IMG/VR virus record: IMGVR_UViG_3300030433_003430
Location: 1 to 56,163 of that record
Reading direction: 5' to 3' (one strand)
DNA length: 56,163 nucleotides
Origin: a virus
Lineage: Duplodnaviria; Caudoviricetes
The stretch's first letter is position 1. Each line of letters opens with the position of its first letter. The notes beneath the pieces were generated by a model, which was given only the letters and a program-made list of their open reading frames with translations, was not told the DNA's origin and searched no databases. This document shows positions 3,393 to 44,990 of this stretch, piece by piece. Made by a program: the position numbers and the translations under genes.

Positions 3393-6300
3393 TTATTGAT
3401 TAACGCATGCAAAACCGTCTACTTTATCAATTTCAATTGTCATATCAGCAATATCTTTCAAATGATCTACATGTGAGATAAGCAACACGGTTTGGTAGTA
3501 AGATTTTACCATATCTAGGATCCGAATGAATCCTTCCATGTTTTCTGCATCCAAAGCAGTTGCTGGTTCGTCCAAAATGAAAATAGAACCCTTTGGTAGC
3601 GAAGATACAGACAGCAAAGCCAGCCTAATTGCCATGGCAGCGATAGTTTTCTCTGCCCCAGAGCCCATTTCAATCGGTCTAGCCTCATATTTAGGGTGTT
3701 TGATGAAAATGTCTAGTTTGTTGCCCTCAGATTCAAAAAATACTTCAAAATCAACAACATTAGCCAATACTTTGCTAATCTCTTCGTTGATTACTGGCAG
3801 TTTCTTTTTAATAACATCCAAAGAAATACCGTTAGTGTGCATACATCGCATGAACAGGTCGTAGGCAGCAAAGTTGTCTCGGAGAGTTTCCATTTCCTCT
3901 TTCTGACTTGCAAGGTTTTCCAGTTTCTGTTCTAGAGATCCTCGCTCCTTAATCAAGCCAACAATCTCTTCGTTACATTCATCTAAGATTATTTGTTGAC
4001 TTTTGAGGTTATTTTGCTGTTCTACCTTTTGTTCAAGGAGTTGCTCCAAGTTCTCAATAGCCTCACGATTTTCTTCGTATTCCTCTATTTTTCCTTGAAG
4101 TTTTTCAATTTCTAGAGTCAGTGTAGACACTTTGCTGTCATTCTTTTCAATGACGACTTCATTTCTGGATATTGTGTTCCAGATTTCTTCTCGCATCTCA
4201 AGAACTTCTTCGTACTTTTTGATCTTTTTTTCCACAGCAGTTGGATCTAACTTTTCTATTTCACTAAAAATCTTTTCAGAATCTTCTCGCAGTTCTTTCA
4301 AGTTTTGCTCAATCACGCAAAGACTGCTCTGTGCATTGTAAGCATCCTTAATGAACTTACAAGAAGAAAACTCATCACCACAAGGCACTTCAAGCAAGAG
4401 TTTAACTTTGTTTTTATTCTGGATTAGTCTGTATTCTTGCTGTTCAATAACCTGATTGGTAGAATCAAGTTTTGATTCATTGTCCTCAATCTGCTTTTGC
4501 TTCTCTTTCAGAGCAGCAATGTCAAAGTTGTTGATAACTTCATTAATACTTTTGTGATCATTGCGTTTTACCTTACAGTCATCCATTAACTCTTGAGATT
4601 CTTTCGTCAGGAGTTCAATTTGTTTTTCTTTAGATATCTGTTCTTCTTTGACCTCAACGATGTTGATGATCTCGGCTGGTATTGATTCTATTTTTCTTTC
4701 AATTTCTGTAATTGAGTTTTCTGTTTTTTCAACTGCACCAGAGTATTTCCTGCATTTATTCTCCTGCTGTTGCTTTGAGGCAGAGTTTTGCTCAAGGAGT
4801 TGTCTAACATCTTCAATTTCGGTATCATATTGTTTTCCTTCCAGAAGTTTTAAGGCTCCCTTCATATCCGCAGCATCTTCTTTGGCCTTCTTGAACTTCT
4901 TTTCAAAGATCAAAAGATCAAGAAACTTGCCTAAGATTTCTTTTCGCTTTGTGGAGCCTTCGTTGATAAAAGAGAGACTGCCCACTTGAGACGACATAGA
5001 AGTTAGCAGAAAATCATCTACTGTTCCAAACATCTTGCGAATGTTTTTGTCTGTGCCGTTTCTGCTATCGCCGTTGAGTTCTTCTTCTTCCTGCGTCACA
5101 TGATCGTAGCAGGAAAAGTTAATATCGGTTTTAGCCTCTAGGGTTTCTTCGCCTTTTAGTTTCTTGATATACTTAGTTGATTCCCTCTCAATTAGAAAAT
5201 CTTTTTGACCCACTGCGATCTCAAGGCGACCTAAACCACTATCTTTATTTTGGTTAATTACATTAAGATTTTTTCTTTCATTCTTGCTGGTAGAGTTAAA
5301 CAGAGTATACAACAGCCCATCAATAATGGAAGACTTACCAGAGTAGTTCTTGCCAAAAATACCAACGATTCCGTTGAGTTTAGTAAAGTCTACTTTGTTT
5401 CCTTCGCCATAGTTGAATAAGTTATCCCACTCAAAAGATTTAAGAGACCAATTAACATTTCTGGCTACCTCTTCCTCTTCTTCAGCCATGGTATTATATT
5501 TTCTGTTTAGTGAAAAAACTTTTTCTAATGTTTCTTTGCTTGCCTCATAATCTTTCAGATACTCTTTAATAAGTTTCTCTTGTACTTTAATATCTCGCAG
5601 ATCTTCAATGTTAATTCCATCAGTTATGTCATTGACATCTGCCCTTTGCCCTGATGCCTTGTTGAGAAAAGTAACACTTTCTGGCTTGAATCTACCCTTT
5701 GCAATATCCATTGCACGACGCATAACATCAAGAGGCAAATTATTAGTAGACACCAGTCGCAATCGTGCTCCGTCTGGCACTTCTAAGTTCTTTGGCATTT
5801 TACCTTTTGGTGTCAACTCAATAGTCACAAAAGGCTTTGGATTTGTAAGCGAGTAGTGCTCACAAGTAAAATTATCTTTATCTTCAATATCCCAAAGCAA
5901 GAACCCTTTATCTGGTGTCTCGCCAAAGTTCTGCTGAACCAGAGAGCCGGGATAAGCAACTCGCCCTTCGTCGTCTAGTTTCTGATATGTCTTATGAATG
6001 TCTCCAAGCAAAACATAGTCAAATGGAGCGAACTGGTCAATGTTGATATCACCATGTTCCATTACCCAGCCAGTGTCGGTGGTAACGCCAGCCACAGAGC
6101 CGTGGAAAAGAGCAATATTTACTTTGCTTTCGTCCGTTGGGTCAATCCATTTGTCCTCATCAACAACAGATAAAACATTTAAAACAAAGCCATTGCCCAA
6201 GTCTACCTCTTGCGAGAACTTATGGAAATGAATGTCCTTGTGGTCTAGTGCTTCAACGATAGGGGTTACAGCGTCAATACGTCCCGGATTACGCAGGTTT

Positions 6301-6545
6301 AGGTCATGGTTCCCAAGGATCACATGTAGAGGTGCTATGTCTGCTAGGTTCTCAAAAAGATTGGCTGTCATGTGAAAATAAGCAGGGCTTAGTTGTAGTT
6401 TAGTATGAGCCGTGTCGCCTGTGTTTACAATAATGTCTGGCTTGAGTTCTCGTAGTTTTTCATAGAGTTCCTCAAACACAGCGGTGTATTCTTCATGGTA
6501 CCGATGGTTGCGAATGTGAATGTCTGAAACATGTGCAATCTTCAT
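3393..6545 (-). CDS. Mre11/SbcD nuclease - Rad50/SbcC ATPase fusion (T4 gp47-gp46-like)
   Basis: Phosphoesterase motifs SDIH, TGD, GNHD, FHG, GDIH, YPGS; then Walker A GKNYSGKSS, coiled coil with central CGDEFSSC, signature GSGAE, Walker B IFILDEP and H-loop ISH. Confidence 0.92.
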   Translation of the reverse strand: MKIAHVSDIHIRNHRYHEEYTAVFEELYEKLRELKPDIIVNTGDTAHTKLQLSPAYFHMTANLFENLADIAPLHVILGNHDLNLRNPGRIDAVTPIVEALDHKDIHFHKFSQEVDLGNGFVLNVLSVVDEDKWIDPTDESKVNIALFHGSVAGVTTDTGWVMEHGDINIDQFAPFDYVLLGDIHKTYQKLDDEGRVAYPGSLVQQNFGETPDKGFLLWDIEDKDNFTCEHYSLTNPKPFVTIELTPKGKMPKNLEVPDGARLRLVSTNNLPLDVMRRAMDIAKGRFKPESVTFLNKASGQRADVNDITDGINIEDLRDIKVQEKLIKEYLKDYEASKETLEKVFSLNRKYNTMAEEEEEVARNVNWSLKSFEWDNLFNYGEGNKVDFTKLNGIVGIFGKNYSGKSSIIDGLLYTLFNSTSKNERKNLNVINQNKDSGLGRLEIAVGQKDFLIERESTKYIKKLKGEETLEAKTDINFSCYDHVTQEEEELNGDSRNGTDKNIRKMFGTVDDFLLTSMSSQVGSLSFINEGSTKRKEILGKFLDLLIFEKKFKKAKEDAADMKGALKLLEGKQYDTEIEDVRQLLEQNSASKQQQENKCRKYSGAVEKTENSITEIERKIESIPAEIINIVEVKEEQISKEKQIELLTKESQELMDDCKVKRNDHKSINEVINNFDIAALKEKQKQIEDNESKLDSTNQVIEQQEYRLIQNKNKVKLLLEVPCGDEFSSCKFIKDAYNAQSSLCVIEQNLKELREDSEKIFSEIEKLDPTAVEKKIKKYEEVLEMREEIWNTISRNEVVIEKNDSKVSTLTLEIEKLQGKIEEYEENREAIENLEQLLEQKVEQQNNLKSQQIILDECNEEIVGLIKERGSLEQKLENLASQKEEMETLRDNFAAYDLFMRCMHTNGISLDVIKKKLPVINEEISKVLANVVDFEVFFESEGNKLDIFIKHPKYEARPIEMGSGAEKTIAAMAIRLALLSVSSLPKGSIFILDEPATALDAENMEGFIRILDMVKSYYQTVLLISHVDHLKDIADMTIEIDKVDGFACVNQ

Positions 6546-6802
6546 TTTCCTTTCCTTACTAATTCAAGTTCTTTGTTCCAAACTGGAACTGGGTATTTTG
6601 AACCCATGGGTATGACCATGTAATAATACTTATTCCAGTCATGATTGGCTCCGTGTATTTTTCCTTTTACTTCTGAGATTATGCCGAGCGTTTCTAAGGT
6701 GTCTTTTACCATTACTAGGTCACCGACTTCAAAGGTTGGATGATGTCTAGAAACTTTATTGGCAGCATGTCTATCTGATTGTTGTCCACCCATCTTATCC
6801 AA
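6542..6802 (-). CDS. small KOW/SH3-like hypothetical protein (start uncertain)
   Basis: FEVGDLVMVK...GII..V...WNKELELV pattern; ATGA-coupled to the nuclease gene. Confidence 0.55.
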   Translation of the reverse strand: MDKMGGQQSDRHAANKVSRHHPTFEVGDLVMVKDTLETLGIISEVKGKIHGANHDWNKYYYMVIPMGSKYPVPVWNKELELVRKGK

Positions 6803-6903
6803 GCAATGTCCTTTTCTTCATCTATTTTTACTACAATTGCCAAAGGATTATCATCAGGAAGTCCTATAGGGCTTAGGTAATAAACTAGATCTCCTACTCT
6901 CAT
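6715..6903 (-). CDS. small KOW/SH3-like hypothetical protein
   Basis: MRVGDLVYY...AIVVKI...IRW...FLDII pattern; AGGGGAG RBS. Confidence 0.65.
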   Translation of the reverse strand: MRVGDLVYYLSPIGLPDDNPLAIVVKIDEEKDIAWIRWVDNNQIDMLPIKFLDIIQPLKSVT

Positions 6904-6906: not shown

Positions 6907-6940
6907 AAAAAACTCCCCTACATAATAGCAGGGGAGTTTT
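6907..6940 (-). terminator. Rho-independent terminator after the lipoprotein genes
   Basis: Minus strand AAAACTCCCCTGC-TATTAT-GTAGGGGAGTTTTTT: 13-bp stem (one G-U) ending in a U tract. Confidence 0.75.
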
Positions 6941-6963: not shown

Positions 6964-8583
6964 TTATTGCGCTTTCTTATACATGGAGGGGCTAGGATAG
7001 ACACCTGCACGAAAGTCTACGTCTCCAAAAAGCATTGTTTTGCCATTTGTAGTTGTTGTTGTAACAGTTTGCTTTACACGACTTCCATTAACCACTTTTT
7101 GATATTCGGTTGTCTTGAGTGGAATACGATTAATATTGAAGTGAGATAGCGGAAAAACCTCTGTTGTAGTGGAAACTCCGTCCATATTATAGTCTACCCA
7201 CACAAGCAACTTTTTAAACCCATCATCCATAGAAGTGATGGCCCTATCTCCGTTAGTGTCAAACACTGCGAGTTCTGTAAACGCTGGTGCGTCAGAGGTT
7301 CCAAACATTTCAGTTCCATCATCAGCAATTCCGTTTCGGTTAGCATCGTTAAACAAAAAGCCGTCACCTGAAATCCAACTTGTTGCGGTTGAGCGTTTAC
7401 CTGTCATGGCAAAATTGACACCACCATTGACGCTAGTAATGTCAAAAACACCGTTCTGGTTGACATCTACAATGATTGGGTCAGACACATTACAGGGTAC
7501 AACTTCAAAAATCTTTACAGCAGCAAGTGCAAACTCATCTGCAATACCTTGCTCAATCGCTTTGGAAAAATCAGTTTGTGCCTGTGCATACAACAGTTCT
7601 TCATCACCGCTAGTTGGAACAAAGTCTTGGCACAACGGATTTGCCGTTACTGCCTGAGAAATAGTATTGAGAGAATCGTCATAAACTGGATCTAAAAGTG
7701 CAGCGTTGGCATCACAAACCTCAATTGGGTCCGACATCACTGGATAATCTGCTTTAAATCCATTGGTTGTTAGCCAATTGTTCATGGTATTGATAAAATG
7801 CTGACGACCAACAACAAGCCCCTTTTCCATAGAACTTTCTACTGCTGTCGGAGTTTGGTTACACAGTCCATTTGTTTTCATTTGAACATGAAGCACGACA
7901 CGAGTCTTTTCTAGACCACTTATAGCTCCCTGTTCATACCAAAAATCCTGCTCTGACAAGGTTGCATTGAAATTTTGACGTTCAGTTTCTAGGGCTGCTG
8001 CCAACTTAGAGTAGGCGTCGGACCTTGCTTGGTCTACCAAATACTCACAACTAGCTTCTGATAGTGGCTTCGTATTATTGTAAAACTCCACAAAGGGACA
8101 ACTAGAAACCTCCGGTAGATCTACTCCAGTTCCCCACTCTGTGCTACCATCATATAGACCAAGATCTTCTAAAGCTAGATTTACCTGATTAATATAAAGA
8201 TCTTCGCCTACACTAATGCCTGCAAAAATATTGTCACGCAAAACATCAATCTCAGCTAGATCTTCCGCCGTGAGGTCAGCGAGGGTTACCCCCTCTACCT
8301 CCTCTACCTCAGTTGTCCCTTCCGGTTCAACTTCAGTTTCAGTTGGGTTGACTTCTGTCTCTGTGCCAGTTTCAACTTCTGTTGGAGTTGTACCTGTTTC
8401 AGTTTCAGTTGTCGTTCCAGTTTGCTCTGTTGTAGTCTCAACAGGTGTTGTTGTAGTATTATCATTCGCTCCTGTGAAGTTTACACCAGTAGCTTCTTCA
8501 GTTGTAGTGTTCACTGGTGTGGTGGTATTTTCACAGCCAGACAATCCAAAAACAAATAGTGTTGCAATAAAAAAGTTCTTCAA
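6964..8583 (-). CDS. lipoprotein with T/E-rich stalk, Cys-containing central domain and C-terminal FrpC-SPM/MIIA-like Ca2+-dependent autocleavage module
   Basis: TTG start at 8583 with GGAG RBS: MKNFFIATLFVFGLSG-C lipobox; C-terminal D-PIIVDVNQNG...SWISGDGFLFNDANRNGIADDGTEMFG...LAVFDTNGD...LLVWVDYNMDGVS...GDVDF. Confidence 0.8.
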   Translation of the reverse strand: MKNFFIATLFVFGLSGCENTTTPVNTTTEEATGVNFTGANDNTTTTPVETTTEQTGTTTETETGTTPTEVETGTETEVNPTETEVEPEGTTEVEEVEGVTLADLTAEDLAEIDVLRDNIFAGISVGEDLYINQVNLALEDLGLYDGSTEWGTGVDLPEVSSCPFVEFYNNTKPLSEASCEYLVDQARSDAYSKLAAALETERQNFNATLSEQDFWYEQGAISGLEKTRVVLHVQMKTNGLCNQTPTAVESSMEKGLVVGRQHFINTMNNWLTTNGFKADYPVMSDPIEVCDANAALLDPVYDDSLNTISQAVTANPLCQDFVPTSGDEELLYAQAQTDFSKAIEQGIADEFALAAVKIFEVVPCNVSDPIIVDVNQNGVFDITSVNGGVNFAMTGKRSTATSWISGDGFLFNDANRNGIADDGTEMFGTSDAPAFTELAVFDTNGDRAITSMDDGFKKLLVWVDYNMDGVSTTTEVFPLSHFNINRIPLKTTEYQKVVNGSRVKQTVTTTTTNGKTMLFGDVDFRAGVYPSPSMYKKAQ

Positions 8584-8584: not shown

Positions 8585-8890
8585 TTACTCTCCTTCTTCT
8601 TCTTCAGTTTCTTCTTCTTCAACTACTTCTTCTTCGGCATCGGCTTCTTCTTCCGCCTCTTCCTCTTCTTCTGCTACCTCATCGCCGTCAGCATCTTCCT
8701 CTTCAGCTTCTTCTTCGGCTTCTTCCTCTTCAGCTTCCTCTTCGGCTTCCTCTTCGGCTTCCTCCTCTTCAGCTTCCTCTTCTTCGGCAGCATCTGCTGC
8801 TTCTTCTACAGTAGTCTCTTCCTCTTCTTCACAGCCAATGAATGCTGTTGCAAAAGCGAAAGCGGTAAATAAAATAAACAAATTCTTCAA
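8585..8890 (-). CDS. poly-glutamate lipoprotein
   Basis: TTG start, AAAGGAG RBS; MKNLFILFTAFAFATAFIG-C lipobox; mature 82 aa is about 70% E/D with no K/R. Confidence 0.8.
   Translation of the reverse strand: MKNLFILFTAFAFATAFIGCEEEEETTVEEAADAAEEEEAEEEEAEEEAEEEAEEEEAEEEAEEEDADGDEVAEEEEEAEEEADAEEEVVEEEETEEEEGE
8590..8830. repeat. degenerate 12-15 nt coding tandem repeats (Ala-Glu3-4)
   Basis: Repeated ttc(c/t)tcttc(a/g)gc units encoding AEEE/AEEEE. Confidence 0.7.
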
Positions 8891-11582: not shown

Positions 11583-12707
11583 TTAGTAATCCAATCTGAC
11601 TCTCAAAGTCAATTCCGTATCTGGAGTCTTTTTGAGTGGTTCTGATACTTTGGCTACAGCCAATAATTCATTATCGGCCGAATACAAGCCAACAGTTGTA
11701 ATATATGAGACAGGCTGGTCTAGACTGCTATTTTTAACTCTGATTTGGCTTGTACTATCTACATAGGTTGGATTTGAACTATAGTTAAATTCATTGTGAC
11801 CTGCTCTGCAAAAATAAATTGTTGAATTAAGCTCTGTAGAATTATTAAAGTCTATGTCATAAATTCTATTTCTAAGACCTACTGAAGATCCGGATATTGT
11901 TTGACTTGTTAATGATGAGTTCACAGTGCTGGCATCTACTAAATATCCAACTGTTCCTGTAACAAGACCGTTTGCAGAGTCTGTTGATGACCCAAGGAAA
12001 ACAGAGGCAGTTAACACTGCGATTCCTGCTTGATAGTATAAAAGTCCTACTTTTGAAGTGTTGGGTGTTGTAGATCCAGATCCAAACAAAACTGCATATT
12101 CTCCAGCAGGAGAATTTACTTTGTAAGAGTTTTGTGCATTTGTGTCAGTTATGCTGATTCCGGGAAGGGGTGTTGTTCCGGAGAGACCTTTAAAAAACGG
12201 GGCACCATAGCTAGTGTTATCTCCAACAACCATGTTGAAGCTTCCTTTTTTAATTTCATCTTTTTGTAAAAGCCTAGCAAAGTTTATGAAAATACACTCT
12301 TTTAGTTTATCATCACCGGTCAGATTCCCGTCAGCGTCAAAGTCTTGTATGTTTCCATTTACATCATGACCTACCAAAAGTTGAGCCATTTGGCTATAAA
12401 TGTTAATTTTATCTGCATTTTGGACATTTGAAGATGCAGATAGTGTAGAGGTATTTGAATAACCAACTGTAACATCAAAAATATGATTTGCAGAAGAACT
12501 TAAGTGAGGGTAATCAAAAACAGACTGAAATAAACCATGTGAATAGTTTTTGATATTATTTTCTGAATTTGTTGGTCCCAAAATGGGTAACGATGGATCA
12601 TTGTAAGTACCCGAAACAATTGACCCTGTGATTGGGATCGCCTCATGTAAAAGAGTTCTAGTTGATGTTACATCGTTATTTAAAAAATTTTTAAAGCTTG
12701 TTGCCAT
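11583..12707 (-). CDS. virion/baseplate structural protein
   Basis: FNYSSNPT and C-terminal YITTVGLY...LLAVAKV..PLKK....LTLRVRLDY. Confidence 0.6.
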   Translation of the reverse strand: MATSFKNFLNNDVTSTRTLLHEAIPITGSIVSGTYNDPSLPILGPTNSENNIKNYSHGLFQSVFDYPHLSSSANHIFDVTVGYSNTSTLSASSNVQNADKINIYSQMAQLLVGHDVNGNIQDFDADGNLTGDDKLKECIFINFARLLQKDEIKKGSFNMVVGDNTSYGAPFFKGLSGTTPLPGISITDTNAQNSYKVNSPAGEYAVLFGSGSTTPNTSKVGLLYYQAGIAVLTASVFLGSSTDSANGLVTGTVGYLVDASTVNSSLTSQTISGSSVGLRNRIYDIDFNNSTELNSTIYFCRAGHNEFNYSSNPTYVDSTSQIRVKNSSLDQPVSYITTVGLYSADNELLAVAKVSEPLKKTPDTELTLRVRLDY

Positions 12708-12722
12708 TTTTTTATCCTTTTA

Positions 12723-13706
12723 TTACTGTATTCTTAAGAAAGAAACTGGAATGCTAATTCTATACCCTGTTGTTGCACCGGTTATTCTAATATTGGTGTC
12801 AATTCTTCTAAATTTTGCCACACCGGCAGAGCCGCCAAAAGGACCGGCATATAAATTATTACTAGTTCCCAATAAAGTAAACAAATATGTTGAGCTATTT
12901 ATTTCTATAGAAGGCGCAACCCTAAATTGCAATCTGCTTCCACGAGGACCGGCAATTGGGGAATTGTTATTTTCATTTAAATTAGTTTTTACTATGCTGC
13001 CATTGCTAGTAGAAAAGCTATAGCTGGCAATATTGTCATCATCTAAATAAGAATATTGTTGCTGCTCTCCATTGTTGTCTACGATATATCCCAATCTATT
13101 ATCAATCTCTACAATATATTGTGTTTCTTGTAAGGTTGGGTCAATAGAAAAGCTTTTAGCAATTGCTGTCGTATTCAAACCTTGATCTACTGCAATAACT
13201 GAACCTTTTGAATTTACTTCACCTGACAAAAATACACCGTCAGGAACACTAGTTGGTCCTGTGTTTGCGTATGCGTTTTGTCTTTTAAAGAAATCATCAG
13301 TTGATTCGTTTGCAGAAACAAAGAAAGTTGTTTCTTCAGCCAAAATGCCAGTTAGTCCGTTTGTTCGTCGCTCTGGAGCGGGGAAGCCAGCATCTGGCTC
13401 CTCTTCATTTAACTTAATCACTGGAAGATATAACAGGTTTGTCTTAGGTATGGTGAGTAGCCTATTTTTCATGGTTGACATGTTATTTGTCAGGGCTTCA
13501 ATTACAGGTGTTGTCAAAATGTTGATGTCAAAATAAGCGGAGCCACTAGCATGATTCAGGTCGTACTTGGCATAATCAATTTCATCATCTGCAAAAGCAT
13601 ATTTAACGATCTTAAATGATCCGTCACCTCTTGCCAGCCTAGCTCTACCAGCGTCGGTAAGCACTGCATCTAAAATAATGTCTCCACTGTTATCTAAAAA
13701 ACCCAT
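12723..13706 (-). CDS. virion/baseplate structural protein
   Basis: N-terminal DAVLTDAGRARLA...YAFADDEIDY motif; context within the structural module. Confidence 0.55.
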   Translation of the reverse strand: MGFLDNSGDIILDAVLTDAGRARLARGDGSFKIVKYAFADDEIDYAKYDLNHASGSAYFDINILTTPVIEALTNNMSTMKNRLLTIPKTNLLYLPVIKLNEEEPDAGFPAPERRTNGLTGILAEETTFFVSANESTDDFFKRQNAYANTGPTSVPDGVFLSGEVNSKGSVIAVDQGLNTTAIAKSFSIDPTLQETQYIVEIDNRLGYIVDNNGEQQQYSYLDDDNIASYSFSTSNGSIVKTNLNENNNSPIAGPRGSRLQFRVAPSIEINSSTYLFTLLGTSNNLYAGPFGGSAGVAKFRRIDTNIRITGATTGYRISIPVSFLRIQ

Positions 13707-13739
13707 TTGTTATCTCCCAAAATGTGTATATTGCCTTTA

Positions 13740-13798: not shown

Positions 13799-16700
13799 TT
13801 ACGTACCATCCATACCAACATTTAATTTCTTTGAAACATTAGCAACGTTTGTTTCTACACCCTTCACTTCTGCTACTTTATCAGAACTAGGTGCAATTAC
13901 AGTTCCATCACATTTTATCACCTCTTCTTTGAGTTTTATAGCCCTTTTTCTAAACGCCACATTCAAATCAATAATTTTGCCAGTATGCTTAGACCTAATT
14001 CTAAACTTATATTTTCTAGTGCCGTCGTTTGTAAATATGCCATTCTCTCTAATACCCAATTCAATATTGGTTGCCTCGGTGGCAGAATCTGCGTCTTTTA
14101 ATCCAGATTTTTCTATATTTACCAAGCCTTGCAATGCTTCAGCATCTATTTTAAGATATCTTTTAAATGATTTGGTTTTAAGACCCAATTCCATAGGTTC
14201 AAATTCAAATATAGAAATCACGGGATACACCACTCCAGAATTTTCTACCATTTCAAGTTGATAAACTGGTGAAGGATTCGTTGGGTTTCCATGAACGTCA
14301 ATTGCTCTAAATGTGTAGTAGTATTTTTTGTTATGAGAAACTTTATCTATATAGCTACTGAATTTTCTAGCATCTACCGTTGTTCTTTTTGTGTTAGCAA
14401 AGCTACCATAACTTGTTGGTTTTTCCTCCATTCTATATACTTCATATTCAACCAGATTATCATCTGACTTAAATAGGAGTTTTGGCTCAACATAAAATTG
14501 TGGTGGTAGTCCTAGCAAAAATGCCAATCCTGTTCCACCTTCATATGCCTTTAGAAGATCTCTATCTTGCGATATTCTTTTTTTATGAAATTTTAACCTA
14601 TCAGTTGGCTGCATGTATATTGGTTCTTGTTCTTGACCAGATGCAGTTGGCATAAAATTAATCTTTATCTTATTTTTTTCTCCCTTAAGTGGTAGCATAT
14701 CAATTTGTGGAGCTAACGCAGGGGAATCGCTAACTGCAACTACTTTTTTATAAAATGGAACTTCAAGCAGTTTTACGTCTGGTTCGCATACCACGTCAAA
14801 CATTGCCATTCTGCTGACTGTTCCTTGGGAAGCGGCGGAGCTATTGTCTTCCTGGCCAAAAAAAACGTTCCGCTTTGGATCAGCCGCATTGCTGTCTGGA
14901 CTATAGATAAACTCTTTCTTTTTAGGATAGTTTTCTTTTGCAGCATCTTGTAAAACATCAGAAAAATACTCTTTAAAATTTTCTCCATATGCATCCATAT
15001 TAGATGTCACATTTTCAAACTGAAACCCATACTTTGAACCAATAACGATTCTATACGCATATATTGTATACTCATAATTCTGCTCATACTTCACTTGTGT
15101 ATCTATATATTTTAATACTTCATCAGATGTTTCTAAATTAGTTGGCTTTGGCACCCAAATATTTTGCTTCACAGGTCCTACGGCACGGGGGATTCCGTTA
15201 TCATCTACAGCGACTTTTTGAATTCTATAGAATAAAGTTTCGTCATATGCTAAATCGCCGTTTAATATTTGTTCATAACTTCTAGCTGTTTGATTTACTA
15301 GTTCTCTATATTTTCCCATAAATTTAACAGCTTTTATTATATCTAAAAGACCATTTTTTTCAGTTGAATATTTGGATAAAAATTGAGGTTGTGAAAAAGT
15401 CTTCGTAATTGGATCTGCTTCTTGAGGTCTAATTACTTCCTGCTCAAAAGCCGTGGTTTCTTCTGTGTTGTCAAAAGCAGACAAAGTAGATAAAAACTTA
15501 ATATAGTTATCTAGCCAAGAATTAAGATCAAATTCTCTGTAAAGTTCAGAATCGCTCTCTTTTACAAGATCGTTTCCTAAATTTTTCTTGTCCTCTGTCT
15601 CGGCTGGAGGTACCACTTTGTAAAAGTTTTTGTAGTTTTCTATAGAGTATATTCTGCCATATTGTGTTGTACATATGGGCGCAGCATTTTGGAGGGCTGC
15701 TAAATCGCTATATTCAGGATCTGGATCACTAACACTATAATATCCTTGAAAATCAGAAGTTAAAGGGGCACTCTTAGATACATTTGGCTCTAACGCTACA
15801 CCGCTTTGTGGGTTAAAAATATTACTTATCCATGTTTTAATTAACCTTTGTGTTATTCCAGATTCATTAAATATTTCAGTGAAAGCTATCCTTGAGTCTC
15901 TTTTGAAATTTAAATTAACATAAAAAGGGAATTGAGTTTTTATGTTTTCATATTTTTCTAAGTATTGTTTATTTGTTTGGTCAATTATAATGTTATGCTT
16001 GTCAAACCCATCGTCTCTGGATGGATTGAAACCACAATTTAATAATCTATGACCGTAATATTCAAAATTATACTTTGATTGTGGATCATCAGTCAGTATA
16101 CCGGGAGTTCCATCTTTGTCTAATGGAACCTCATATATGTTTGGCATTTCTCTCTCTGTAAATGGAGATACATCAATTGAAGACACAACTGTTTCAACAG
16201 TTTCTTGACTAGTGCCCTCTTCATAAAGCTTTGAATAAAAATTGTATATTGGCTTAATGTCTGCAAAAAGATCACTTTTGTTTATTTCGTTTGTCAATCC
16301 CATCGCTTTTGTAGACATTGGAATTGACATGTCTATAGAACTATCTTTATAGTATTCAGTTGTGTATGTTTTGTACATACCCAAAGACTCTGTGTATGAT
16401 ACGAAAGAGTTTAGTTTGCCATTTTTAATAGCGGCGTCAAGGAACACGAACGACTCAGAGTCCCATGATTGTTTCAAATTATTTAAATCTTCTTTAGCGC
16501 TATCACTTAAAGCATGAACAGTCTTTTCTGCATCTTCCATGGATATATTCCAATATGGCAATATTATATCTTTTTTGCTAAACGTGCTTTTATAGTTGTA
16601 TCCAGCGAAATTCCCAAAAGAAAACTTTGGAAAAGAAAGAGACACCTCGTTACCTTGATAAGATACTTTTTTGTTTTTTGTATACATATCTGTCAATAAA

Positions 16701-17167
16701 GATATCATGGCTAACCTATTTGACACAACATCTTTGCCATCTAAAAACATTTTTAACCTGCTAGCTTTTCTTGGCAAATTTAAAGTTTCTGGCTTAACTC
16801 CTACAGGATATAATTTACTCCATTGAGCAGATACATCATCAATTTTTACTGTATTTGCAATTGAAAATTCTCCACTATATTGAAGTGGTAGCTTTGTTCC
16901 ATATATGCCAGAAAGACCAGAGTCGTAATATCCTATTTGTCCTTTAGAAAAACTCCAAAATTTTCCAGTTGCTTGACGAAAAGGATCTACTGTTGTTACA
17001 AACTCTTGATCTTCATAAGAGCCCGGAGGAGCAGAGGAATTAATTTTTAACTGCAATTCTTCTTTGGAAATTTCATATGATTGGGGGTAGTATGCAGTAT
17101 CTTTAACAATTAATACATACTTTGTAGAATAATCATTTTTTAATCTATTGTTTAAAGAATTAGACAT
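13799..17167 (-). CDS. large hypothetical virion protein with FN3-like C-terminal segments
   Basis: 1122-aa ORF; YIDTQVKYEQNYEYTIYAY and YIDKV...KYYYTFRAIDVHGN..NPSPVY are FN3-like strand patterns. Confidence 0.55.
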   Translation of the reverse strand: MSNSLNNRLKNDYSTKYVLIVKDTAYYPQSYEISKEELQLKINSSAPPGSYEDQEFVTTVDPFRQATGKFWSFSKGQIGYYDSGLSGIYGTKLPLQYSGEFSIANTVKIDDVSAQWSKLYPVGVKPETLNLPRKASRLKMFLDGKDVVSNRLAMISLLTDMYTKNKKVSYQGNEVSLSFPKFSFGNFAGYNYKSTFSKKDIILPYWNISMEDAEKTVHALSDSAKEDLNNLKQSWDSESFVFLDAAIKNGKLNSFVSYTESLGMYKTYTTEYYKDSSIDMSIPMSTKAMGLTNEINKSDLFADIKPIYNFYSKLYEEGTSQETVETVVSSIDVSPFTEREMPNIYEVPLDKDGTPGILTDDPQSKYNFEYYGHRLLNCGFNPSRDDGFDKHNIIIDQTNKQYLEKYENIKTQFPFYVNLNFKRDSRIAFTEIFNESGITQRLIKTWISNIFNPQSGVALEPNVSKSAPLTSDFQGYYSVSDPDPEYSDLAALQNAAPICTTQYGRIYSIENYKNFYKVVPPAETEDKKNLGNDLVKESDSELYREFDLNSWLDNYIKFLSTLSAFDNTEETTAFEQEVIRPQEADPITKTFSQPQFLSKYSTEKNGLLDIIKAVKFMGKYRELVNQTARSYEQILNGDLAYDETLFYRIQKVAVDDNGIPRAVGPVKQNIWVPKPTNLETSDEVLKYIDTQVKYEQNYEYTIYAYRIVIGSKYGFQFENVTSNMDAYGENFKEYFSDVLQDAAKENYPKKKEFIYSPDSNAADPKRNVFFGQEDNSSAASQGTVSRMAMFDVVCEPDVKLLEVPFYKKVVAVSDSPALAPQIDMLPLKGEKNKIKINFMPTASGQEQEPIYMQPTDRLKFHKKRISQDRDLLKAYEGGTGLAFLLGLPPQFYVEPKLLFKSDDNLVEYEVYRMEEKPTSYGSFANTKRTTVDARKFSSYIDKVSHNKKYYYTFRAIDVHGNPTNPSPVYQLEMVENSGVVYPVISIFEFEPMELGLKTKSFKRYLKIDAEALQGLVNIEKSGLKDADSATEATNIELGIRENGIFTNDGTRKYKFRIRSKHTGKIIDLNVAFRKRAIKLKEEVIKCDGTVIAPSSDKVAEVKGVETNVANVSKKLNVGMDGT

Positions 17168-17183: not shown

Positions 17184-20100
17184 CTAATATCCCTGCGAGC
17201 CTCCTCCAGTAAATAGATTAAAAGCCACATTTTGTGCTTGTTCTGTAGCAACTCCTTGCTGTGTGCTGACAGGGGGTGATCCTTTAGTGGTGTTGTTTAT
17301 AAGCTCTGAACTAGTTTTTGCTTTTTCGGTATTGTTGGATATACCCTTTAAAAAGAATAATTGCTTTTTAACGGATCCGCCGCCAAGGGGACCTCCAGAT
17401 ACTCCCGGTTCACCGGCTCCAGAACCTCCGATGGTAACAAAATCTCCTGCCCCTTGTTGACCAACGGCTGTGGTAAAAGGTGTCCCTTGTGTGCCAAATC
17501 CTGCACCGGTTCCCACATCAACGCCTCCGGCTGCGCCTCCGACAAAGCCAGTTAGTCCAAGCTCAGTTACCGCACCAGCATCAAGACCTGTGGCTATTCC
17601 AATACCGGCGGCTCCACCTTCAACGCCAACTAACGCCTCTGCCTCTTCCATTGTTTGCCCTCCGGGTAAAAACTCTTGCGAATCTGGCTCAAAGAATGGG
17701 CTAGAGTCAAACTCTCCCTGCGTTTCTGCGTCTTCGTTTAATTCAGGTTCTAAAATTGGCGGTACTCCAAAATCAATAATAAAATGTTGGTTATACATTG
17801 GCAATTTTAGTGCTTCATATTCTTTGATTCCGTACAAGTCTTTCTCATATGGTAAAAGTCTACATAAAACTTGACCGCTGGTTTGTGCTGCGGATACAAA
17901 TTGGTCTTGGCTTAGTTCTGCCCAAATTGGACTATTAATTTGAATATTACCATATGCATCAGATTCATACCCAACTAGAGCTTCTACTTTAACTAACTTT
18001 TTAAAGTTTAACAAAAAGAATGATAAGTATTCAGGAGTTTGATATAAAAGTTGACGTTCAGATATAATATTCTCAATGGGCGAGCTTGGATTTGTCCCAT
18101 AAACTTTATAAAAATCATTTTCATTGCCGATCTCTGTAAATATATACGGTCTTTTTTCTTTTAATTGATCTTTTAAGCTTTTAAACGATGGAGAACTGTA
18201 GTCTTTTGTAAAATCCAAATTAGATAATAGGCATTTTACATGATTTGGTGCCCTTTTTAATGGAGAATTTTCTATGACATAAGGGTCTAAACTAGCTGAA
18301 TCAACCAGTTGTAGAGCGGAAAGAAGCGTCCAAGCTTGATATTCATCCCATCCAAAATTTAAAACATAATACGCCCAAGACCATATTTCATCACTCAATA
18401 TATCAAACGTGTTTTGAAGCATTGTTGTCAAGAGCATATTCGTCGGATCAACATTGGTATCAAATATATCTTTTTCCACCAACTGTGTTACTTGACTTAA
18501 AGACCCCGGAATCAACTGATCTAATGGCTTTACAGTTGTTTGCCTGTTGTTGAAAATGGTTAATAAATCATATTTGGCTTCGTTTGTTATGCTTGGCTTT
18601 ATAATTTGATCTGTCGCAAGCCCTTCATCAAAACCAACACCAGTTGCAACGCCGAAATCTTTTGGAAAATCAAATTTTTGACTAGCGATTGTATTTTCTT
18701 TTATTATGTTTAACATCACATTATTTATATCAGAAACGTCTGTTCTTAATAAACCACTGTTCAGCATGTTTTGAGATTCACTTTTCGCAAAGTTTATGAT
18801 TGATGGAGACAAATACGAGTTTCTTGAATACTGTATGTTGTCTTCTGGGTTCAATATTGGTCCTTGTTTGGCCGATATTTGACTTGGACTTAATTCGTTT
18901 TCTTCAAATTGAGATACTTGAAGTGGGTGCTTTGGTATTGATATGTCGTAATCAGACAAAGTAGAAAATAGCTTTAAGGTTTCTAGCCTAGTTCTATCAT
19001 CCCAAATAGGTCTGGAAATTCTCTTTAAACCTAATATTGGAGCAGAGTCTTCTTCAGTTGTTGAAGATGTTGATAAATAATCATACCCAGTCAGATGATT
19101 AATATCTCCTTCTACTTTAACCTTAAAGTGTTTTGATATTGTAAAGTGCCTTCTTGGATTAGAACCAGCAGCCAAATAAACTGATTGCCCTTTTCCGTCT
19201 GCGCCAACCTGTGGGGCGTCTACTGGTTTCTTATACTTTGAAACAGAAGAAAATATATTTAGTATTTTTTTATAAGTTGTTTCTAAAATCTGATACACTT
19301 TCAGGGCACCACTAGGATTTCCAAAGTTTGTCCCCGAAATAGATCCCAAAAAATTATATAGACCATAAATGTTTTCATCAAACTCTGTAAAAGAACTTAA
19401 AACATTAAAAAAATCAAATACTTTATTGTATGTAAACCCGCCGGGGTACTCTGAATTTAGATAATCAATTCCTTCAGAATTAAACCTGTTAGTATAAACA
19501 TTAAAATATTTTGGATTTGATGTAGCATCGTTAACGTAATCTAAAAGACCGCTTTTTTCTACAGAAGGTGTTCCGTAAAGTATTGTCTCTAAAATTGAAA
19601 TTTTTTCTGACATCCATTCTATGATTGGATCTTTTATTTCTATTTCAACAGAAAAACTATAGTCTCCGTCATTTGGCGTCTTTAAATCTGTTCCTGTAAA
19701 AAACCTCACGTTATAATCCATAGGCATTTCAGATAAGCCTAATGAAATTTGTGATATTGTTCCCACCGTTTCATTCTTTTCCTGATTTGATGCCTGAATA
19801 AGCACCCCATCATCTGAGTCTGTAGTTGAAACAACTAGCTTTGGCACATCATTCTCTACAGATTCATAAAGATCTACTGTTTTATCTGCGACGTTTTCTT
19901 TGTAAATTCTATGCCTATACACTTTTAAGCTATTAATTAATTTTTGATTTAGCAGGATATTTGCTTCTTCCGGATCTTCAAAAATATAATCTATCAATTT
20001 TGGAAAAGCAGAGTGGCTTTTGATAGCCTCTTTCATGTCTAAAGAAAAAAAGTACCTTGTATTTCCGGACCCATCCATAGCAAGATACATATCGCCAAAA

Positions 20101-21263
20101 TTAGCTTTGTTTTTGGATGCAGTTAAAGTTTTTGCTAAAAGCTTTTCATATTCTTCCGTACCATATGGATTGTTGGCAGCATCATCCTCTAATAATCCTT
20201 TTAAATTATCAGTTAATTTTTCAGTTGTTTTCTGATTAAACCAAGAGTTTGAAAACAAAGAATAGTCATAATTTAGTTGTTCTATATTTTTTACTTCTCT
20301 ATAATCTTGTATGATTCCATTTAAAACTGTTTGTTCAGTTAAAAAAGGACCCATTTCTAGAGGATTTCCCGGTGGGCCAGCCATATATCCTATATATCCG
20401 TTAGGACCGGGATTGGCATTGCCATGATAATGCACCTCTCCTGTCCAAATTTTGGCATTTTCTAAAGTTTCTAGCGGGACTGGGTTTCCGTTTACATCTG
20501 TTTCGGTTACATAAAATATTTGTGCGAAGTTATTTACAGTGCCATTTTGTATCACAGGTAAAATATTTACTTGTCCCATTGTTAGATTTTCTACTATTGA
20601 CGAAGGAAGATTTACAAAATCATTAAATGGACCTTCGTCTAGAAATATTTGTTGTGCGTCAATATATGCATGAGTAAAATAAGATAAATTTTCTACGGTT
20701 ATTCCGCCTTGTTCGGTTGGTATTTCAAAAACTAACTTATAAGGGAACACATATATTTTATTACCGCTAGAATCAAATTTTGTTTCAATTTGGCGACCTT
20801 CATTGGTAAACTGGTCTCCGTCTAACTCTTCTAAATTGCCCTCAAACCCTGAAAATTCTAAGTCTTTTACAATTACTCCGGGTATGTTTGAGACGCCGCC
20901 GAAAAAAGAACTTGCATCAATTACTCCCCCTTGCTTAAGATAATTAAAAGTATCGTTTGTTATGGCGAGTGTTTGTGCAGGATCTGTGCTTTGAACAACC
21001 CTAATTTTTAGATACTTTGTAAAATCATCTTTAAAAAACATTGAGTATATGTTTCCAGCGCTTTGATCAAAGCCTACCTCTACAGACAAGATAATTTCTA
21101 CTTGCATCCTGTCGGGGCTAGACGCACCAAATGCATCAGATGGATTTGGCAATGCTTCGTCATTAATATGTGGTTCGTTTGTAAGCTTAACTAAATCTTG
21201 ACCACCATCTAGCTTAACACTAAGAAAATTAATTTTTGGTAATAAAAATCCTGCTGTTGCCAT
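17184..21263 (-). CDS. large hypothetical virion protein with Gly-rich C-terminal tail
   Basis: About 1359 aa; start 21263 (TAATG coupling); located in the structural module. Confidence 0.55.
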   Translation of the reverse strand: MATAGFLLPKINFLSVKLDGGQDLVKLTNEPHINDEALPNPSDAFGASSPDRMQVEIILSVEVGFDQSAGNIYSMFFKDDFTKYLKIRVVQSTDPAQTLAITNDTFNYLKQGGVIDASSFFGGVSNIPGVIVKDLEFSGFEGNLEELDGDQFTNEGRQIETKFDSSGNKIYVFPYKLVFEIPTEQGGITVENLSYFTHAYIDAQQIFLDEGPFNDFVNLPSSIVENLTMGQVNILPVIQNGTVNNFAQIFYVTETDVNGNPVPLETLENAKIWTGEVHYHGNANPGPNGYIGYMAGPPGNPLEMGPFLTEQTVLNGIIQDYREVKNIEQLNYDYSLFSNSWFNQKTTEKLTDNLKGLLEDDAANNPYGTEEYEKLLAKTLTASKNKANFGDMYLAMDGSGNTRYFFSLDMKEAIKSHSAFPKLIDYIFEDPEEANILLNQKLINSLKVYRHRIYKENVADKTVDLYESVENDVPKLVVSTTDSDDGVLIQASNQEKNETVGTISQISLGLSEMPMDYNVRFFTGTDLKTPNDGDYSFSVEIEIKDPIIEWMSEKISILETILYGTPSVEKSGLLDYVNDATSNPKYFNVYTNRFNSEGIDYLNSEYPGGFTYNKVFDFFNVLSSFTEFDENIYGLYNFLGSISGTNFGNPSGALKVYQILETTYKKILNIFSSVSKYKKPVDAPQVGADGKGQSVYLAAGSNPRRHFTISKHFKVKVEGDINHLTGYDYLSTSSTTEEDSAPILGLKRISRPIWDDRTRLETLKLFSTLSDYDISIPKHPLQVSQFEENELSPSQISAKQGPILNPEDNIQYSRNSYLSPSIINFAKSESQNMLNSGLLRTDVSDINNVMLNIIKENTIASQKFDFPKDFGVATGVGFDEGLATDQIIKPSITNEAKYDLLTIFNNRQTTVKPLDQLIPGSLSQVTQLVEKDIFDTNVDPTNMLLTTMLQNTFDILSDEIWSWAYYVLNFGWDEYQAWTLLSALQLVDSASLDPYVIENSPLKRAPNHVKCLLSNLDFTKDYSSPSFKSLKDQLKEKRPYIFTEIGNENDFYKVYGTNPSSPIENIISERQLLYQTPEYLSFFLLNFKKLVKVEALVGYESDAYGNIQINSPIWAELSQDQFVSAAQTSGQVLCRLLPYEKDLYGIKEYEALKLPMYNQHFIIDFGVPPILEPELNEDAETQGEFDSSPFFEPDSQEFLPGGQTMEEAEALVGVEGGAAGIGIATGLDAGAVTELGLTGFVGGAAGGVDVGTGAGFGTQGTPFTTAVGQQGAGDFVTIGGSGAGEPGVSGGPLGGGSVKKQLFFLKGISNNTEKAKTSSELINNTTKGSPPVSTQQGVATEQAQNVAFNLFTGGGSQGY

Positions 21264-22219
21264 TAACAAGGCTCCTCTTCATTCTTTGGTGTTTTGCTGT
21301 AAATATCTGTTGTAATATTTGCTTGCAAATCATCTGCTATTTCATCGTCAACTCTTACATCAAAATAGTATTCAACATTGCTATCATTTAGTTCAATCTT
21401 TTTCTCCAAATCGCCTGAGTAGTATATTTCATTAACCACTTTCTCGCCATTAACAAAATATAAAGGCTCTAGAGTTTCTGTTATTTTATTTGTATCTGGT
21501 TCAGTAGTTATTTGATACACCTCTATTTCAAAGTTTTCGTTTTCAAAAAGTGCATTGTGTTCTCTGAAATCAATTAAAATATAATCTTTTGTTATCTCAA
21601 TATAATCCCCATTGGGAAATTTTGTAACATTAACATTTTGTATAATATTTTCTGTGCCTTTTACCTGTTTAACTTCTGTATCATAAAATGTCTGTACTTC
21701 TAATTGGGGTATCTTTAACAGACCTGATGAGCCTGTATATTCTGCGTTTGATCCTGTTATGGTGCCATGTAAAAGTTTTAATTCCCATGCTGGGTTTTTA
21801 TCAGAATTGTACTCACTCGTGCCCATGGGGATTCCCATGCTATAATAATTATCTATAGAATTGGGCGCTTTAGATAAGGCTTCTACCTTCTGCTCTTGAG
21901 TTAATTCAATTTGTTGAACCTTGTCTAAAAAAGGATTAAAAACATTTTTGACTTCAGACAGCTTGTGTATATTCGTTTCTATGCCTCCAAAGTTATGTTG
22001 AACTTTTGGTCTGACAGCTTGCCTAATTCTATCTGATGATTTTGTAGAATTTTCTAACTTATTACTGCTTCCACCAGAGGAATACTGATTGTCGTATATA
22101 ACATCATCATCAAAAAAAGCATAGTAAGCAGGGCTTAATGCACCACGAGAGAGCAAATGTTTTCCATATTGCGTCAATTGCAACTCTAATACTTCTTCTT
22201 TTTTATTAAAAAAACTCAT
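21263..22219 (-). CDS. virion/baseplate structural protein (N-terminus related to 12723..13706)
   Basis: Likely start MSFFNKKEEV; LQLTQYGKHLL...YYAFFDDDVIYD. Confidence 0.55.
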   Translation of the reverse strand: MSFFNKKEEVLELQLTQYGKHLLSRGALSPAYYAFFDDDVIYDNQYSSGGSSNKLENSTKSSDRIRQAVRPKVQHNFGGIETNIHKLSEVKNVFNPFLDKVQQIELTQEQKVEALSKAPNSIDNYYSMGIPMGTSEYNSDKNPAWELKLLHGTITGSNAEYTGSSGLLKIPQLEVQTFYDTEVKQVKGTENIIQNVNVTKFPNGDYIEITKDYILIDFREHNALFENENFEIEVYQITTEPDTNKITETLEPLYFVNGEKVVNEIYYSGDLEKKIELNDSNVEYYFDVRVDDEIADDLQANITTDIYSKTPKNEEEPC

Positions 22220-44294: not shown

Positions 44295-44302
44295 TAAATA
44301 GT
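44295..44302 (-). promoter_or_regulatory. ACTATTTA motif (putative late promoter) at the head of the structural module
   Basis: 7 nt upstream of the SD-less ATG 44287. Confidence 0.55.
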
Positions 44303-44308
44303 GCTAAT

Positions 44309-44989: not shown

Positions 44990-44990
44990 A

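Follow-up and report, generated by a model that had tools for sequence, protein, structure and literature searches.

A phage lipoprotein that ends in an FrpC-type self-processing module, and its relatives in marine Myxococcota-type bacteria

Introduction

Does a marine phage encode a protein that could cut its own chain outside the cytoplasm and bond the new end to the envelope of its host? The question is raised by a gene on the minus strand of a 56,163-nucleotide stretch of viral DNA (record IMGVR_UViG_3300030433_003430, positions 1-56,163), the whole of which we call the window. An original prediction, made from the sequence without database searches, described the product of this gene as a phage lipoprotein with a self-processing module (SPM) of 'clip-and-link' type, like that found in the Neisseria meningitidis protein FrpC.

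Published work is cited throughout from extracts of the papers. The FrpC SPM is unfolded at cytoplasmic Ca2+ levels, folds at sub-millimolar Ca2+ and then cuts at an Asp-Pro, so that the upstream part ends in a cyclic anhydride (PMC7078468; PMC7846742; PMC12538545). In the NeissLock work the outcome for the anhydride is coupling to amines of a partner docked beside it, ring closure within the same protein, or hydrolysis (PMC7846742; PMC12538545). Across the literature that we searched, experiments demonstrate clip-and-link only in FrpC, FrpA, ApxIVA and two close homologues, and the chemistry is tied to giant RTX proteins of animal-associated bacteria. The same search returned no phage SPM and no lipoprotein SPM, in line with the statement in the original prediction that no described phage example was known (the supplementary homologue panels of Kuban 2020 and Lim 2025 lay outside its scope and may list non-RTX homologues).

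Results and Discussion

Layout of the gene and protein

The gene and its product are divided as follows (AF2, AlphaFold2; -, minus strand).

6964..8583 (-): whole gene, encoding a lipoprotein precursor of 539 aa (open reading frame, translation)
8583-8581 and 6966-6964 (-): start codon TTG and stop codon TAA (sequence)
8590..8595 (-): Shine-Dalgarno-like AAGGAG, 6 nt before the TTG start (read from the sequence)
8533..8583 (-): signal peptide and lipobox L-S-G-C, residues 1-17, with predicted lipidated Cys17 (sequence)
8272..8532 (-): Thr/Glu-rich stalk, residues 18-104, predicted disordered (composition, AF2)
7486..8271 (-): all-alpha six-Cys domain, residues 105-366 (262 aa), predicted to stay with the lipid anchor (AF2)
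7477..7482 (-): predicted scissile Asp368-Pro369 (GAC 7482-7480, CCA 7479-7477) in VSD/PIIVDVNQNG (aligned to FrpC D414)
7006..7479 (-): FrpC-type SPM, residues 369-526 (PDB match, profile, fold)
6967..7005 (-): short variable C-terminal tail, residues 527-539 (sequence)

The lipobox, the T/E-rich stalk, the six-Cys domain and the VSD/PIIVDVNQNG site at 7482-7477 are thus all present where the original prediction had placed them. Its start codon at 8583 is right too, because AAGGAG lies ahead of this TTG and homologues begin with ATG at the equivalent residue (MKNFFI...). A mechanical list of open reading frames (ORFs) offers an alternative TTG at 8622, which overlaps the preceding gene and was rejected.

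The N-terminal signal, MKNFFIATLFVFGLSGC, has the lipobox of a bacterial lipoprotein, the class of protein that is a substrate for Lgt and Lsp; its lipidation is predicted from the sequence. The consensus lipobox is [LVI][ASTVI][GAS]C. In the stalk, 32 of the 87 residues are Thr and 19 are Glu, and the predicted local distance difference test score (pLDDT) of the AF2 model is only 23-47. The stalk is poorly conserved, with a mean pairwise identity of 0.54 among the clade of viral copies described below and 0.25 among copies from metagenome-assembled genomes (MAGs).

Homology of the C-terminal domain to the FrpC module

By a phmmer search against all PDB chains we found that residues 367-524 match residues 2-171 of chain 6sjx_A (E = 5.7e-19). 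The only significant chains in this single-sequence search were the two structures of the FrpC SPM, 6sjx_A and 6sjw_A. In the alignment the S-D-P of the phage protein falls on the S-D-A of 6sjx, which is the structure of a P415A precursor, so that D368-P369 corresponds to D414-P415 of FrpC. A profile made from nine phage copies gave E = 2.7e-32 (profile positions 1-162 of 172 against chain positions 2-173 of 182).

The fold agrees with the sequence match. An AF2 model built from a 35-row alignment has a pLDDT of about 85-92 in the SPM part. Foldseek matched it to 6sjx (E = 7.8e-10, target-normalised TM 0.76), and VIA-align, run against 48,161 chains, placed 6sjw at the top with Z = 20.2 (root-mean-square deviation 3.2 A, 156 of 179 residues), the next chain having a Z of 7.0. 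Identity to the FrpC SPM is about 30-33% in the structural alignments. The profile match and the structural match were both set beforehand as checks on the predicted FrpC-type SPM, and both bear it out: the resemblance to FrpC is far beyond chance as judged from sequence, and the C-terminal ~160 residues are, by sequence, conserved residues and modelled fold, a genuine FrpC-type SPM.

The residues that matter in FrpC have counterparts in the phage protein. Kuban 2020 (PMC7078468) lists in the extracts used here D419/D421/D423/G424 with D456; D462-E474; D499-D511; D521-E532; the W451/W519 pair; and D478 and D579. For conservation we aligned the query with 34 of the 120 listed relatives (see below), a selection that covers the whole range of identities and takes in four fragments. 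The counterparts of D419/D421/D423/G424 are D373/N375/N377/G378, and that of D456 is D407 (33 of 34 rows). The three EF-hand-like loops correspond to D413...E425, D442...D453 and D464...E475, with exchanges between Asp and Asn at positions 3 and 5, and the Trp pair corresponds to W403/W462. Each Ca2+-ligand and Trp counterpart is kept in 32-34 of the 33-34 family rows that cover it. At the fifth, transient Ca2+ site the counterpart of D579, D521, is kept in 33 of 33 rows, and that of D478 is Thr (20) or Asn (13) in the 33; the same extracts report D478 and D579 as not catalytic (PMC7078468).

The two modules therefore share homology over their whole length, the fold, an Asp-Pro at the N-terminal edge, four EF-hand-like Ca2+ sites and the Trp pair. 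Since homology, fold, site and Ca2+ ligands are like those of the FrpC SPM, the same chemistry is to be expected (Ca2+-induced folding, cleavage of Asp-Pro and formation of an Asp anhydride). What differs is the setting: here the SPM is the last domain of a 539-residue Sec/lipobox lipoprotein without RTX repeats, found in a phage and in Myxococcota-type bacteria. No RTX repeats came up when the protein was scanned with Pfam, which gave no family at all at E ≤ 10, HemolysinCabind included. The protein ends 13 residues past the SPM, with no extension of the type I secretion system kind and with the lipobox signal at the N-terminus instead, just as the original prediction had described.

The prediction had also equated the module with the metal-ion-induced autocleavage (MIIA) domain of NopE1, and in this it did not hold. 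PF07481 (DUF1521, the MIIA family) has no match in the window at E ≤ 1, and the cleavage site reads S-D-P-I rather than the G-D-P-H at which MIIA cuts, internally, between D and P (PMC6506597). MIIA domains, known from NopE1/NopE2 and Vibrio coralliilyticus VIC_001052, are type III secreted and are reported to have two Ca2+ sites (PMC6506597), compared with four to five for the SPM. The likeness lies in an exported protein that stays unfolded until Ca2+ binds and is then cut at an Asp-Pro bond (PMC6506597).

An invariant Asp-Pro in the lipoprotein family

We searched 5.8 billion proteins by a word index and scored 7,999 candidates, of which 137 are relatives at E ≤ 0.001, so that the family has at least this many members. 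The 120 that are listed are 37-93% identical to the query and mostly 530-600 residues long, and the relatives come from marine metagenomes, including 0.1-0.22 um fractions of Tara. In the conservation alignment Asp-Pro is present in all 34 family rows that cover the site, and the lipobox Cys in all 32 rows that cover the N-terminus. By regular expression, a canonical lipobox is found in 22 of 26 family members taken from genomic loci.

A precomputed Pfam accession, PF26745.1, is attached to 118 of the 120 listed homologues. C-terminal fragments carry it, and fragments that end before or within the first ~40 residues of the SPM do not, so PF26745 appears to cover the SPM part. The accession on these proteins means that the domain has already been modelled by database curators.

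Domains resembling the phage SPM are widespread. Searching 1.84 billion cluster representatives with the phage SPM profile gave 25,666 matches at E ≤ 0.001, 18,200 at ≤ 1e-10 and 641 at ≤ 1e-30. The best 150 of the 25,666 are mostly proteins of 1,000-7,500 residues; in 17 of the top representatives that we scanned, Pfam identified RTX, cadherin or Ig domains in some and nothing in others. We re-aligned 146 of the best 150 and obtained 361 domain matches, of which 277, in 144 proteins, are near full length. Only 36 of these 277 domains (13%) have Asp-Pro; the others have Ser-Pro (55), Ala-Pro (50), Pro-Pro (47), Thr-Pro (17) or other residues at the site. Because Asp-Pro is rare among SPM-like domains, its invariance in the lipoprotein family is meaningful and indicates selection. 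Among those representatives, an Asp-Pro module at the extreme C-terminus occurs only in members of the lipoprotein family.

By sequence, then, the SPM fold appears to be a very common Ca2+-binding unit in which competence for cleavage may be confined to a minority. The giant cadherin/Ig/RTX adhesin-like proteins belong to the same domain family by profile and differ from the phage protein in having mostly Ser-, Ala-, Pro- or Thr-Pro at the site, a length of 1,000-7,500 residues and often several copies of the domain, and there the domains are probably structural Ca2+-binding units. Many of these giants combine an N-proximal Asp-Pro copy with one or two C-proximal copies in which the residue ahead of the Pro is Ser, Ala, Pro or Thr. 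On IMG/VR contigs, two RTX proteins (L024:799-7446 and L025:5398-12507) have A-S-P-L-V-I-D-L-D-G-D-G, with Ser-Pro in place of Asp-Pro.

The survey brings up the question of whether the C-terminal domain of the phage protein is only a structural Ca2+-binding module that does not cleave, like its Ser-Pro, Ala-Pro and Pro-Pro cousins. A non-cleaving role is evidently common, given that 241 of the 277 domains lack Asp-Pro, and the phage protein departs from FrpC at D478 and in one shorter loop. We nevertheless regard this explanation as very improbable: Asp-Pro is kept in 34 of 34 family rows, as opposed to 13% of the superfamily sample, and all the residues that Kuban 2020, in the extracts used, ties to folding and to the narrow port at the site are kept as well.

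The helical six-Cys domain

The part of the protein that would keep the reactive end is all-alpha, with helices at residues 106-140, 174-201, 211-237, 247-273, 294-314 and 326-359 in the AF2 model (pLDDT mostly 75-92). Beyond the lipobox Cys it has six more (162, 179, 241, 290, 318 and 364), each kept in 34-35 of 35 aligned relatives, which fits an oxidising location outside the cytoplasm. Within the viral clade both this domain and the SPM are conserved (mean identity 0.67 and 0.56).

We found no family match for the helical domain in Pfam, NCBIfam, PHROGs or PADLOC and no usable match in the ESM Atlas. Foldseek against the PDB matched only the SPM at E ≤ 0.001, the best Z of the exhaustive aligner for the helical domain (7.0) is within helical-bundle noise, and a structural search of BFVD gave no match at E ≤ 0.001. 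Modelled alone from nine sequences the domain had a poor pLDDT of 52.6. Among 2,037 candidates none carried the domain in a longer protein, which is weak evidence, and 15 shorter matches were fragments on short contigs; as far as these sequences go, the domain seems to occur only fused to the SPM. The PDB chain search, which matched the SPM only, likewise gave no sign of a relation to FrpC(1-414) or to FrpD. We also considered a spanin and rejected it, as there is no PHROG match, no C-terminal membrane segment, and the gene sits amid replication and recombination genes and not lysis genes.

One lysine of this domain, Lys254, is the only Lys conserved throughout the family (35 of 35 rows in the 35-row alignment, 23 of 25 in a second count). 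It invites an explanation in which the Asp368 anhydride reacts within its own molecule, for example with Lys254, to give a cyclised helical domain resistant to proteases and heat. Intramolecular cyclisation is documented for SPM fusions in the extracts used (PMC7846742, PMC12538545), and Cys364 would tether Asp368 near the helical bundle. Lys254 may be kept for other reasons, however, and such self-stapling leaves the paired partner gene of the bacterial relatives (below) unexplained; we consider it improbable.

Bacterial relatives and a candidate partner

The family is not confined to phages. Scanning one genome per prokaryotic species with family patterns, we confirmed 15 loci out of 26 pattern matches, all of them in MAGs, with titles that name Myxococcales or Myxococcota (9), Bradymonadales (1), Deltaproteobacteria (3) or 'proteobacterium' (2). 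Their GC content is 53-66%, and that of the SPM gene is like that of its surroundings. All 15 copies end directly past the SPM. The cleavage site was found by the pattern PCNV[SG]DP in 14 of the 15 loci, and the remaining one, L035, has PCVVADP. Lipobox signals are canonical by pattern in 11 of the 15, near-canonical in two and unclear in two.

A midpoint-rooted maximum likelihood tree of the 26 sequences taken from loci unites the ten low-GC viral copies in a single clade (support 100/100) and places L012, an IMG/VR contig with 45% GC, among the bacterial rows. With this rooting the viral clade appears nested among the MAG sequences, but a bacterial clade separate from it is not rejected by an approximately unbiased (AU) test (p-AU 0.172). 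The sequences support a single transfer between phage and bacteria and favour neither as donor. To judge from this distribution, the SPM lipoprotein is not a phage invention and belongs to a family common to phages and marine Myxococcota-type bacteria.

The SPM gene is followed directly, on its own strand, by a gene for a homologous protein of ~570-670 residues with a Big_7 Ig domain and a PQQ_2/BamB-type beta-propeller in 11 of the 15 MAG loci, and in 8 of these 11 the propeller protein has a lipobox of its own by pattern. Examples of this propeller lipoprotein are L031:3790-5649, L027:9527-11404 and L036:9606-11633. Among the four loci without it, one ends 185 bp past the gene and cannot be judged, and L033, L039 and L040 have other neighbours. 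In a sample of 301 genomes of the phylum we found the helical domain in 11 (E ≤ 1e-10) and the propeller in 13 (E ≤ 1e-40). Both genes are present in 10 of the 11 genomes with the helical domain, whereas the propeller is present in 3 of the 290 others, only one of the three being a full-length match. In 8 of these 11 genomes they lie next to each other. The relatedness of the genomes inflates this co-occurrence; the adjacency on the same strand is independent of it.

We also co-folded the helical domain of a MAG copy, from an alignment of 10 rows, with the neighbouring protein, from one of 7 rows. The ipSAE score was 0.58 (runs 0.58, 0.56 and 0.61) compared with 0.02 for the best control, the runs agreed in at least 61% of contacts, and the pLDDT of the partner was at least 80. 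Among 80 solved complexes 58 reached that ipSAE mark, as did 2 of 110 mismatched pairs, with only 7 of those 80 complexes, and both passing mismatches, at 0.60 or below. Taken together, adjacency, co-occurrence and co-fold point to the Ig and propeller lipoprotein as the likely partner of the SPM lipoprotein in bacteria. The pair forms an undescribed two-lipoprotein module of marine Myxococcota-type MAGs.

The gene in its phage context

The record that holds the window is estimated to be 26% complete, with all genes on one strand. PHROG matches in the window include baseplate wedge proteins, a primase, a RuvC-like resolvase and an SbcC-like ATPase fused to a phosphoesterase, and the nearest cultured phages, Microcystis phage Mel-JY01 and Flavobacterium phage immuto, are 30-35% identical (in the SbcC-like and baseplate proteins). 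Scanning IMG/VR with the family patterns, we confirmed 11 loci out of 33 pattern matches. The usual gene order in these 11 viral loci is RuvC-like, primase, (acidic lipoprotein), SPM gene, (cytidylyltransferase), two small genes, SbcC-like, the genes in brackets not being constant. The related viral records are 72-267 kb long and estimated to be 40-78% complete, which suggests phage genomes of very roughly 180-340 kb.

In the other phage collections searched, BFVD among them, we found no protein of this architecture. A tblastn search of 50,697 GenBank phage records gave a single match, to an ordinary giant RTX-type protein, and no SPM lipoprotein. A scan of IMG/VR with patterns for the SPM only added just three viral contigs, again with ordinary giant RTX-type proteins. 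MT835772.1 and L023-L025, the other phage matches to the SPM, are proteins of this giant kind and lack the lipoprotein architecture.

Could the gene be a bacterial passenger that is useless to the phage, or the contig not viral at all? Native homologues in high-GC Myxococcota-type MAGs, and the grouping of L012 with bacterial sequences, might be taken that way. Set against them are the phage genes of the window (baseplate wedge, primase, RuvC-like and SbcC-like), the GC content of the SPM gene, which matches that of its phage surroundings (window 31-39% GC), the single clade of ten low-GC viral copies at a conserved position, and the recurrence of near-identical DNA in marine metagenome runs from several studies. 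We find this explanation hardly credible. No RNA run is listed with the stretch among the sequencing runs, which says nothing on expression either way. The window has no tRNA genes, and the GC gap (35% vs 53-66%) makes the sampled Myxococcota MAGs unlikely hosts.

A proposed mechanism and its alternatives

By analogy with FrpC, we think it probable that the phage lipoprotein processes itself outside the cytoplasm, that its SPM cleaves off, and that the reactive Asp end bonds a component of the host envelope. The precursor would cross the inner membrane unfolded, by the Sec route, and Cys17 would be lipidated. In a marine host, whose envelope is rich in Ca2+, the SPM would then bind four to five of these ions as it folds, and so strain the Asp-Pro amide. 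Seawater contains ~10 mM Ca2+. The trigger would thus be present as soon as the chain reaches a marine envelope, so that processing would be constitutive but strictly post-export, on the principle that also holds for type I-secreted RTX proteins. The side chain of Asp368 would attack its own carbonyl and release the SPM with its tail (171 residues, ~18.6 kDa), leaving the lipid-anchored stalk and helical domain (~38 kDa) to end in a cyclic Asp anhydride, which would be captured within minutes by the nearest amine, as an isopeptide bond, or by water.

The likeliest acceptor in Myxococcota-type bacteria would be the Ig and propeller lipoprotein encoded directly downstream. Because the phage carries only the reactive lipoprotein and no partner, we infer that its product would bond a component of the host envelope, either the host's version of the propeller protein or another envelope neighbour. 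The outcome would be an irreversible change to the envelope of the infected cell, for example a block of the receptor or of a second infection.

Two known systems resemble parts of this scheme. In N. meningitidis, FrpC(1-414) binds FrpD, an outer-membrane lipoprotein whose gene lies upstream, and forms covalent links with other surface proteins; in the adhesion model FrpD retains this fragment while the reactive Asp bonds a second surface (PMC5233953; PMC7078468; PMC3034196, from extracts). FrpD-FrpC and the family described here share a lipid anchor combined with a reactive Asp end, and the bacterial copies are also paired with a second lipoprotein gene. They differ in that here the anchor and the reactive fragment are one polypeptide, and the partner gene is downstream and encodes Ig and beta-propeller domains. 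The second system is Llp of phage T5, a protein of the outer membrane's inner leaflet that binds FhuA, the receptor (bioRxiv 10.64898/2026.03.26.714494; PMC9586334, from extracts). It too is a phage-encoded lipoprotein that is made in the infected cell and acts on the host envelope, a role which for the SPM lipoprotein we propose by analogy. Llp is small and non-covalent, and has no sequence relation to the SPM lipoprotein; the latter matches no known superinfection-exclusion or defence family (0 PHROG families at E ≤ 1e-5, 0 PADLOC at E ≤ 0.01). Superinfection exclusion is the obvious precedent for phage lipoproteins. Covalent modification of a host envelope component in the infected cell is the reading that we favour for the phage.

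A more specific version of this proposal is possible, and we offer it tentatively, with appreciably less confidence than the general one. The family may be the first case of natural clip-and-link in a virus, and also the first anywhere outside RTX proteins of the type I secretion route, welding the helical domain to a specific envelope target (the propeller partner, or an amine such as that of a peptidoglycan stem peptide). A clade of marine jumbo-type phages may have captured the reactive lipoprotein alone, for a covalent block of the receptor or as an enzyme-free tether to the outer membrane.

The product of cleavage could also go no further. In this alternative the SPM is a Ca2+-triggered pro-domain that removes itself (a folding aid, a solubility tag or an export timer), the anhydride is hydrolysed, and all activity lies in the helical domain. 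When an SPM cleaves in vitro, a linear product left by hydrolysis is among the normal results, according to the extracts used (PMC7846742; PMC12538545). Loss of the terminal SPM would free a C-terminus only 4 residues past the last conserved Cys, and the candidate partner gene is absent from the phage records examined. On the other hand, a signal-independent protease site or a stop codon would be a cheaper route to the same product, and a 160-residue module with all its Ca2+ sites kept in every member argues that the chemistry matters. The bacterial operon with its second lipoprotein, and the weak co-fold, also suggest a partner near the reactive end. We judge clipping without linking to be unlikely.

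Several observations weigh against a clip-and-link role for the phage protein. Most SPM-like domains lack Asp-Pro, so the fold alone does not imply cleavage. D478 of FrpC is not conserved, and the loop at 478-491 is ~8 residues shorter. The helical domain has no recognisable fold or family and so gives no independent pointer to a target. The co-fold concerns the bacterial proteins and not the phage copy, and by its calibration lends weak support. The propeller gene is absent from the window, from the 11 viral loci and from five related viral records (40-78% complete). The membrane destination (inner, outer or surface) cannot be read from the sequence. Cleavage and linking in this family are predictions that rest on the FrpC analogy, and the same analogy underlies what we suggest about the target and the role in infection.

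Neighbouring genes and other features

Three further features lie close to the SPM gene, two of them called by a consensus scan only.

8585..8890 (-): companion lipoprotein, 101 aa, lipobox F-I-G-C, directly upstream of the SPM gene (ORF)
6909..6940 (-): intrinsic-terminator-like hairpin, 13-bp stem and T run, 24 nt past the stop (consensus scan only)
6950-6922 (-): promoter-like TTGACT-17-TATTAT, overlapping the terminator-like hairpin (consensus scan only)

The companion is the acidic lipoprotein of the viral gene order. Its mature part is 56% Asp/Glu (with EEEEE... runs), and its stop codon is 1 nt ahead of the start of the SPM gene. It stands immediately upstream in the window, as does a similar gene in 5 of the 11 related viral loci and in none of the 15 MAG loci. 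As a speculation, such an acidic membrane-anchored protein could act as a local Ca2+ buffer for its Ca2+-triggered neighbour.

The SPM gene is followed by a pair of small ORFs that overlap each other (62 and 86 aa, 6542-6903, minus strand), which are kept in sequence and order in most related viral loci and gave no family match (PHROG and PADLOC scans were among those run). Next to them, at 3393-6545 (minus strand), is a fusion protein of 1,050 aa with an N-terminal Mre11/SbcD-like metallophosphoesterase and an SbcC/Rad50-like ATPase. This SbcDC-type fusion is also kept in related viral loci, and its best cultured match is in Microcystis phage Mel-JY01 (31% identity).

Near the baseplate wedge genes there are four very large ORFs, all on the minus strand: 22258-31713 (3,151 aa), 35504-40453 (1,649 aa), 17184-21269 (1,361 aa) and 13799-17167 (1,122 aa). 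None has a PHROG match, and only the largest has a sub-threshold match to Laminin_G_3. Presumably they encode parts of the tail or fibres in a phage lineage that is still uncharacterised. A run of sugar-nucleotide and glycan genes occupies 44300-56163 (minus strand), with three nucleotide-sugar epimerase-like genes, an aminotransferase, a formyltransferase-like gene, a GFO/IDH/MocA oxidoreductase, an ATP-grasp enzyme, a phosphoheptose-isomerase-like gene and glycosyltransferases. On one of the viral contigs, L009, the SPM gene has other neighbours, among them, as identified by eye, a protein with a tubulin/FtsZ-like glycine-rich N-terminal motif (12590-13732) and a ClpP-like protein (13954-14580).

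Implications

The chemistry and the fold of the SPM were known already; the architecture, the export route, the taxonomic range and the viral carrier are new. The survey of SPM-like domains separates a large structural Ca2+-binding family from a minority that would be capable of cleaving, and the genomic comparison brings to light a defined two-lipoprotein module in Myxococcota-type bacteria. A compact SPM exported as a Sec-dependent lipoprotein, in marine bacteria and in phages, would mean that the module is a portable 'leaving group' able to arm any exported domain. Short, terminal SPM variants from cold seawater are candidates for anhydride-based ligation tools of the NeissLock type. For the phage, the family offers a testable case of a virus that would use spontaneous covalent protein chemistry on the envelope of its host, and a covalent, self-activating lipoprotein for superinfection exclusion, which we infer here from analogy, would be a new mechanism if true.

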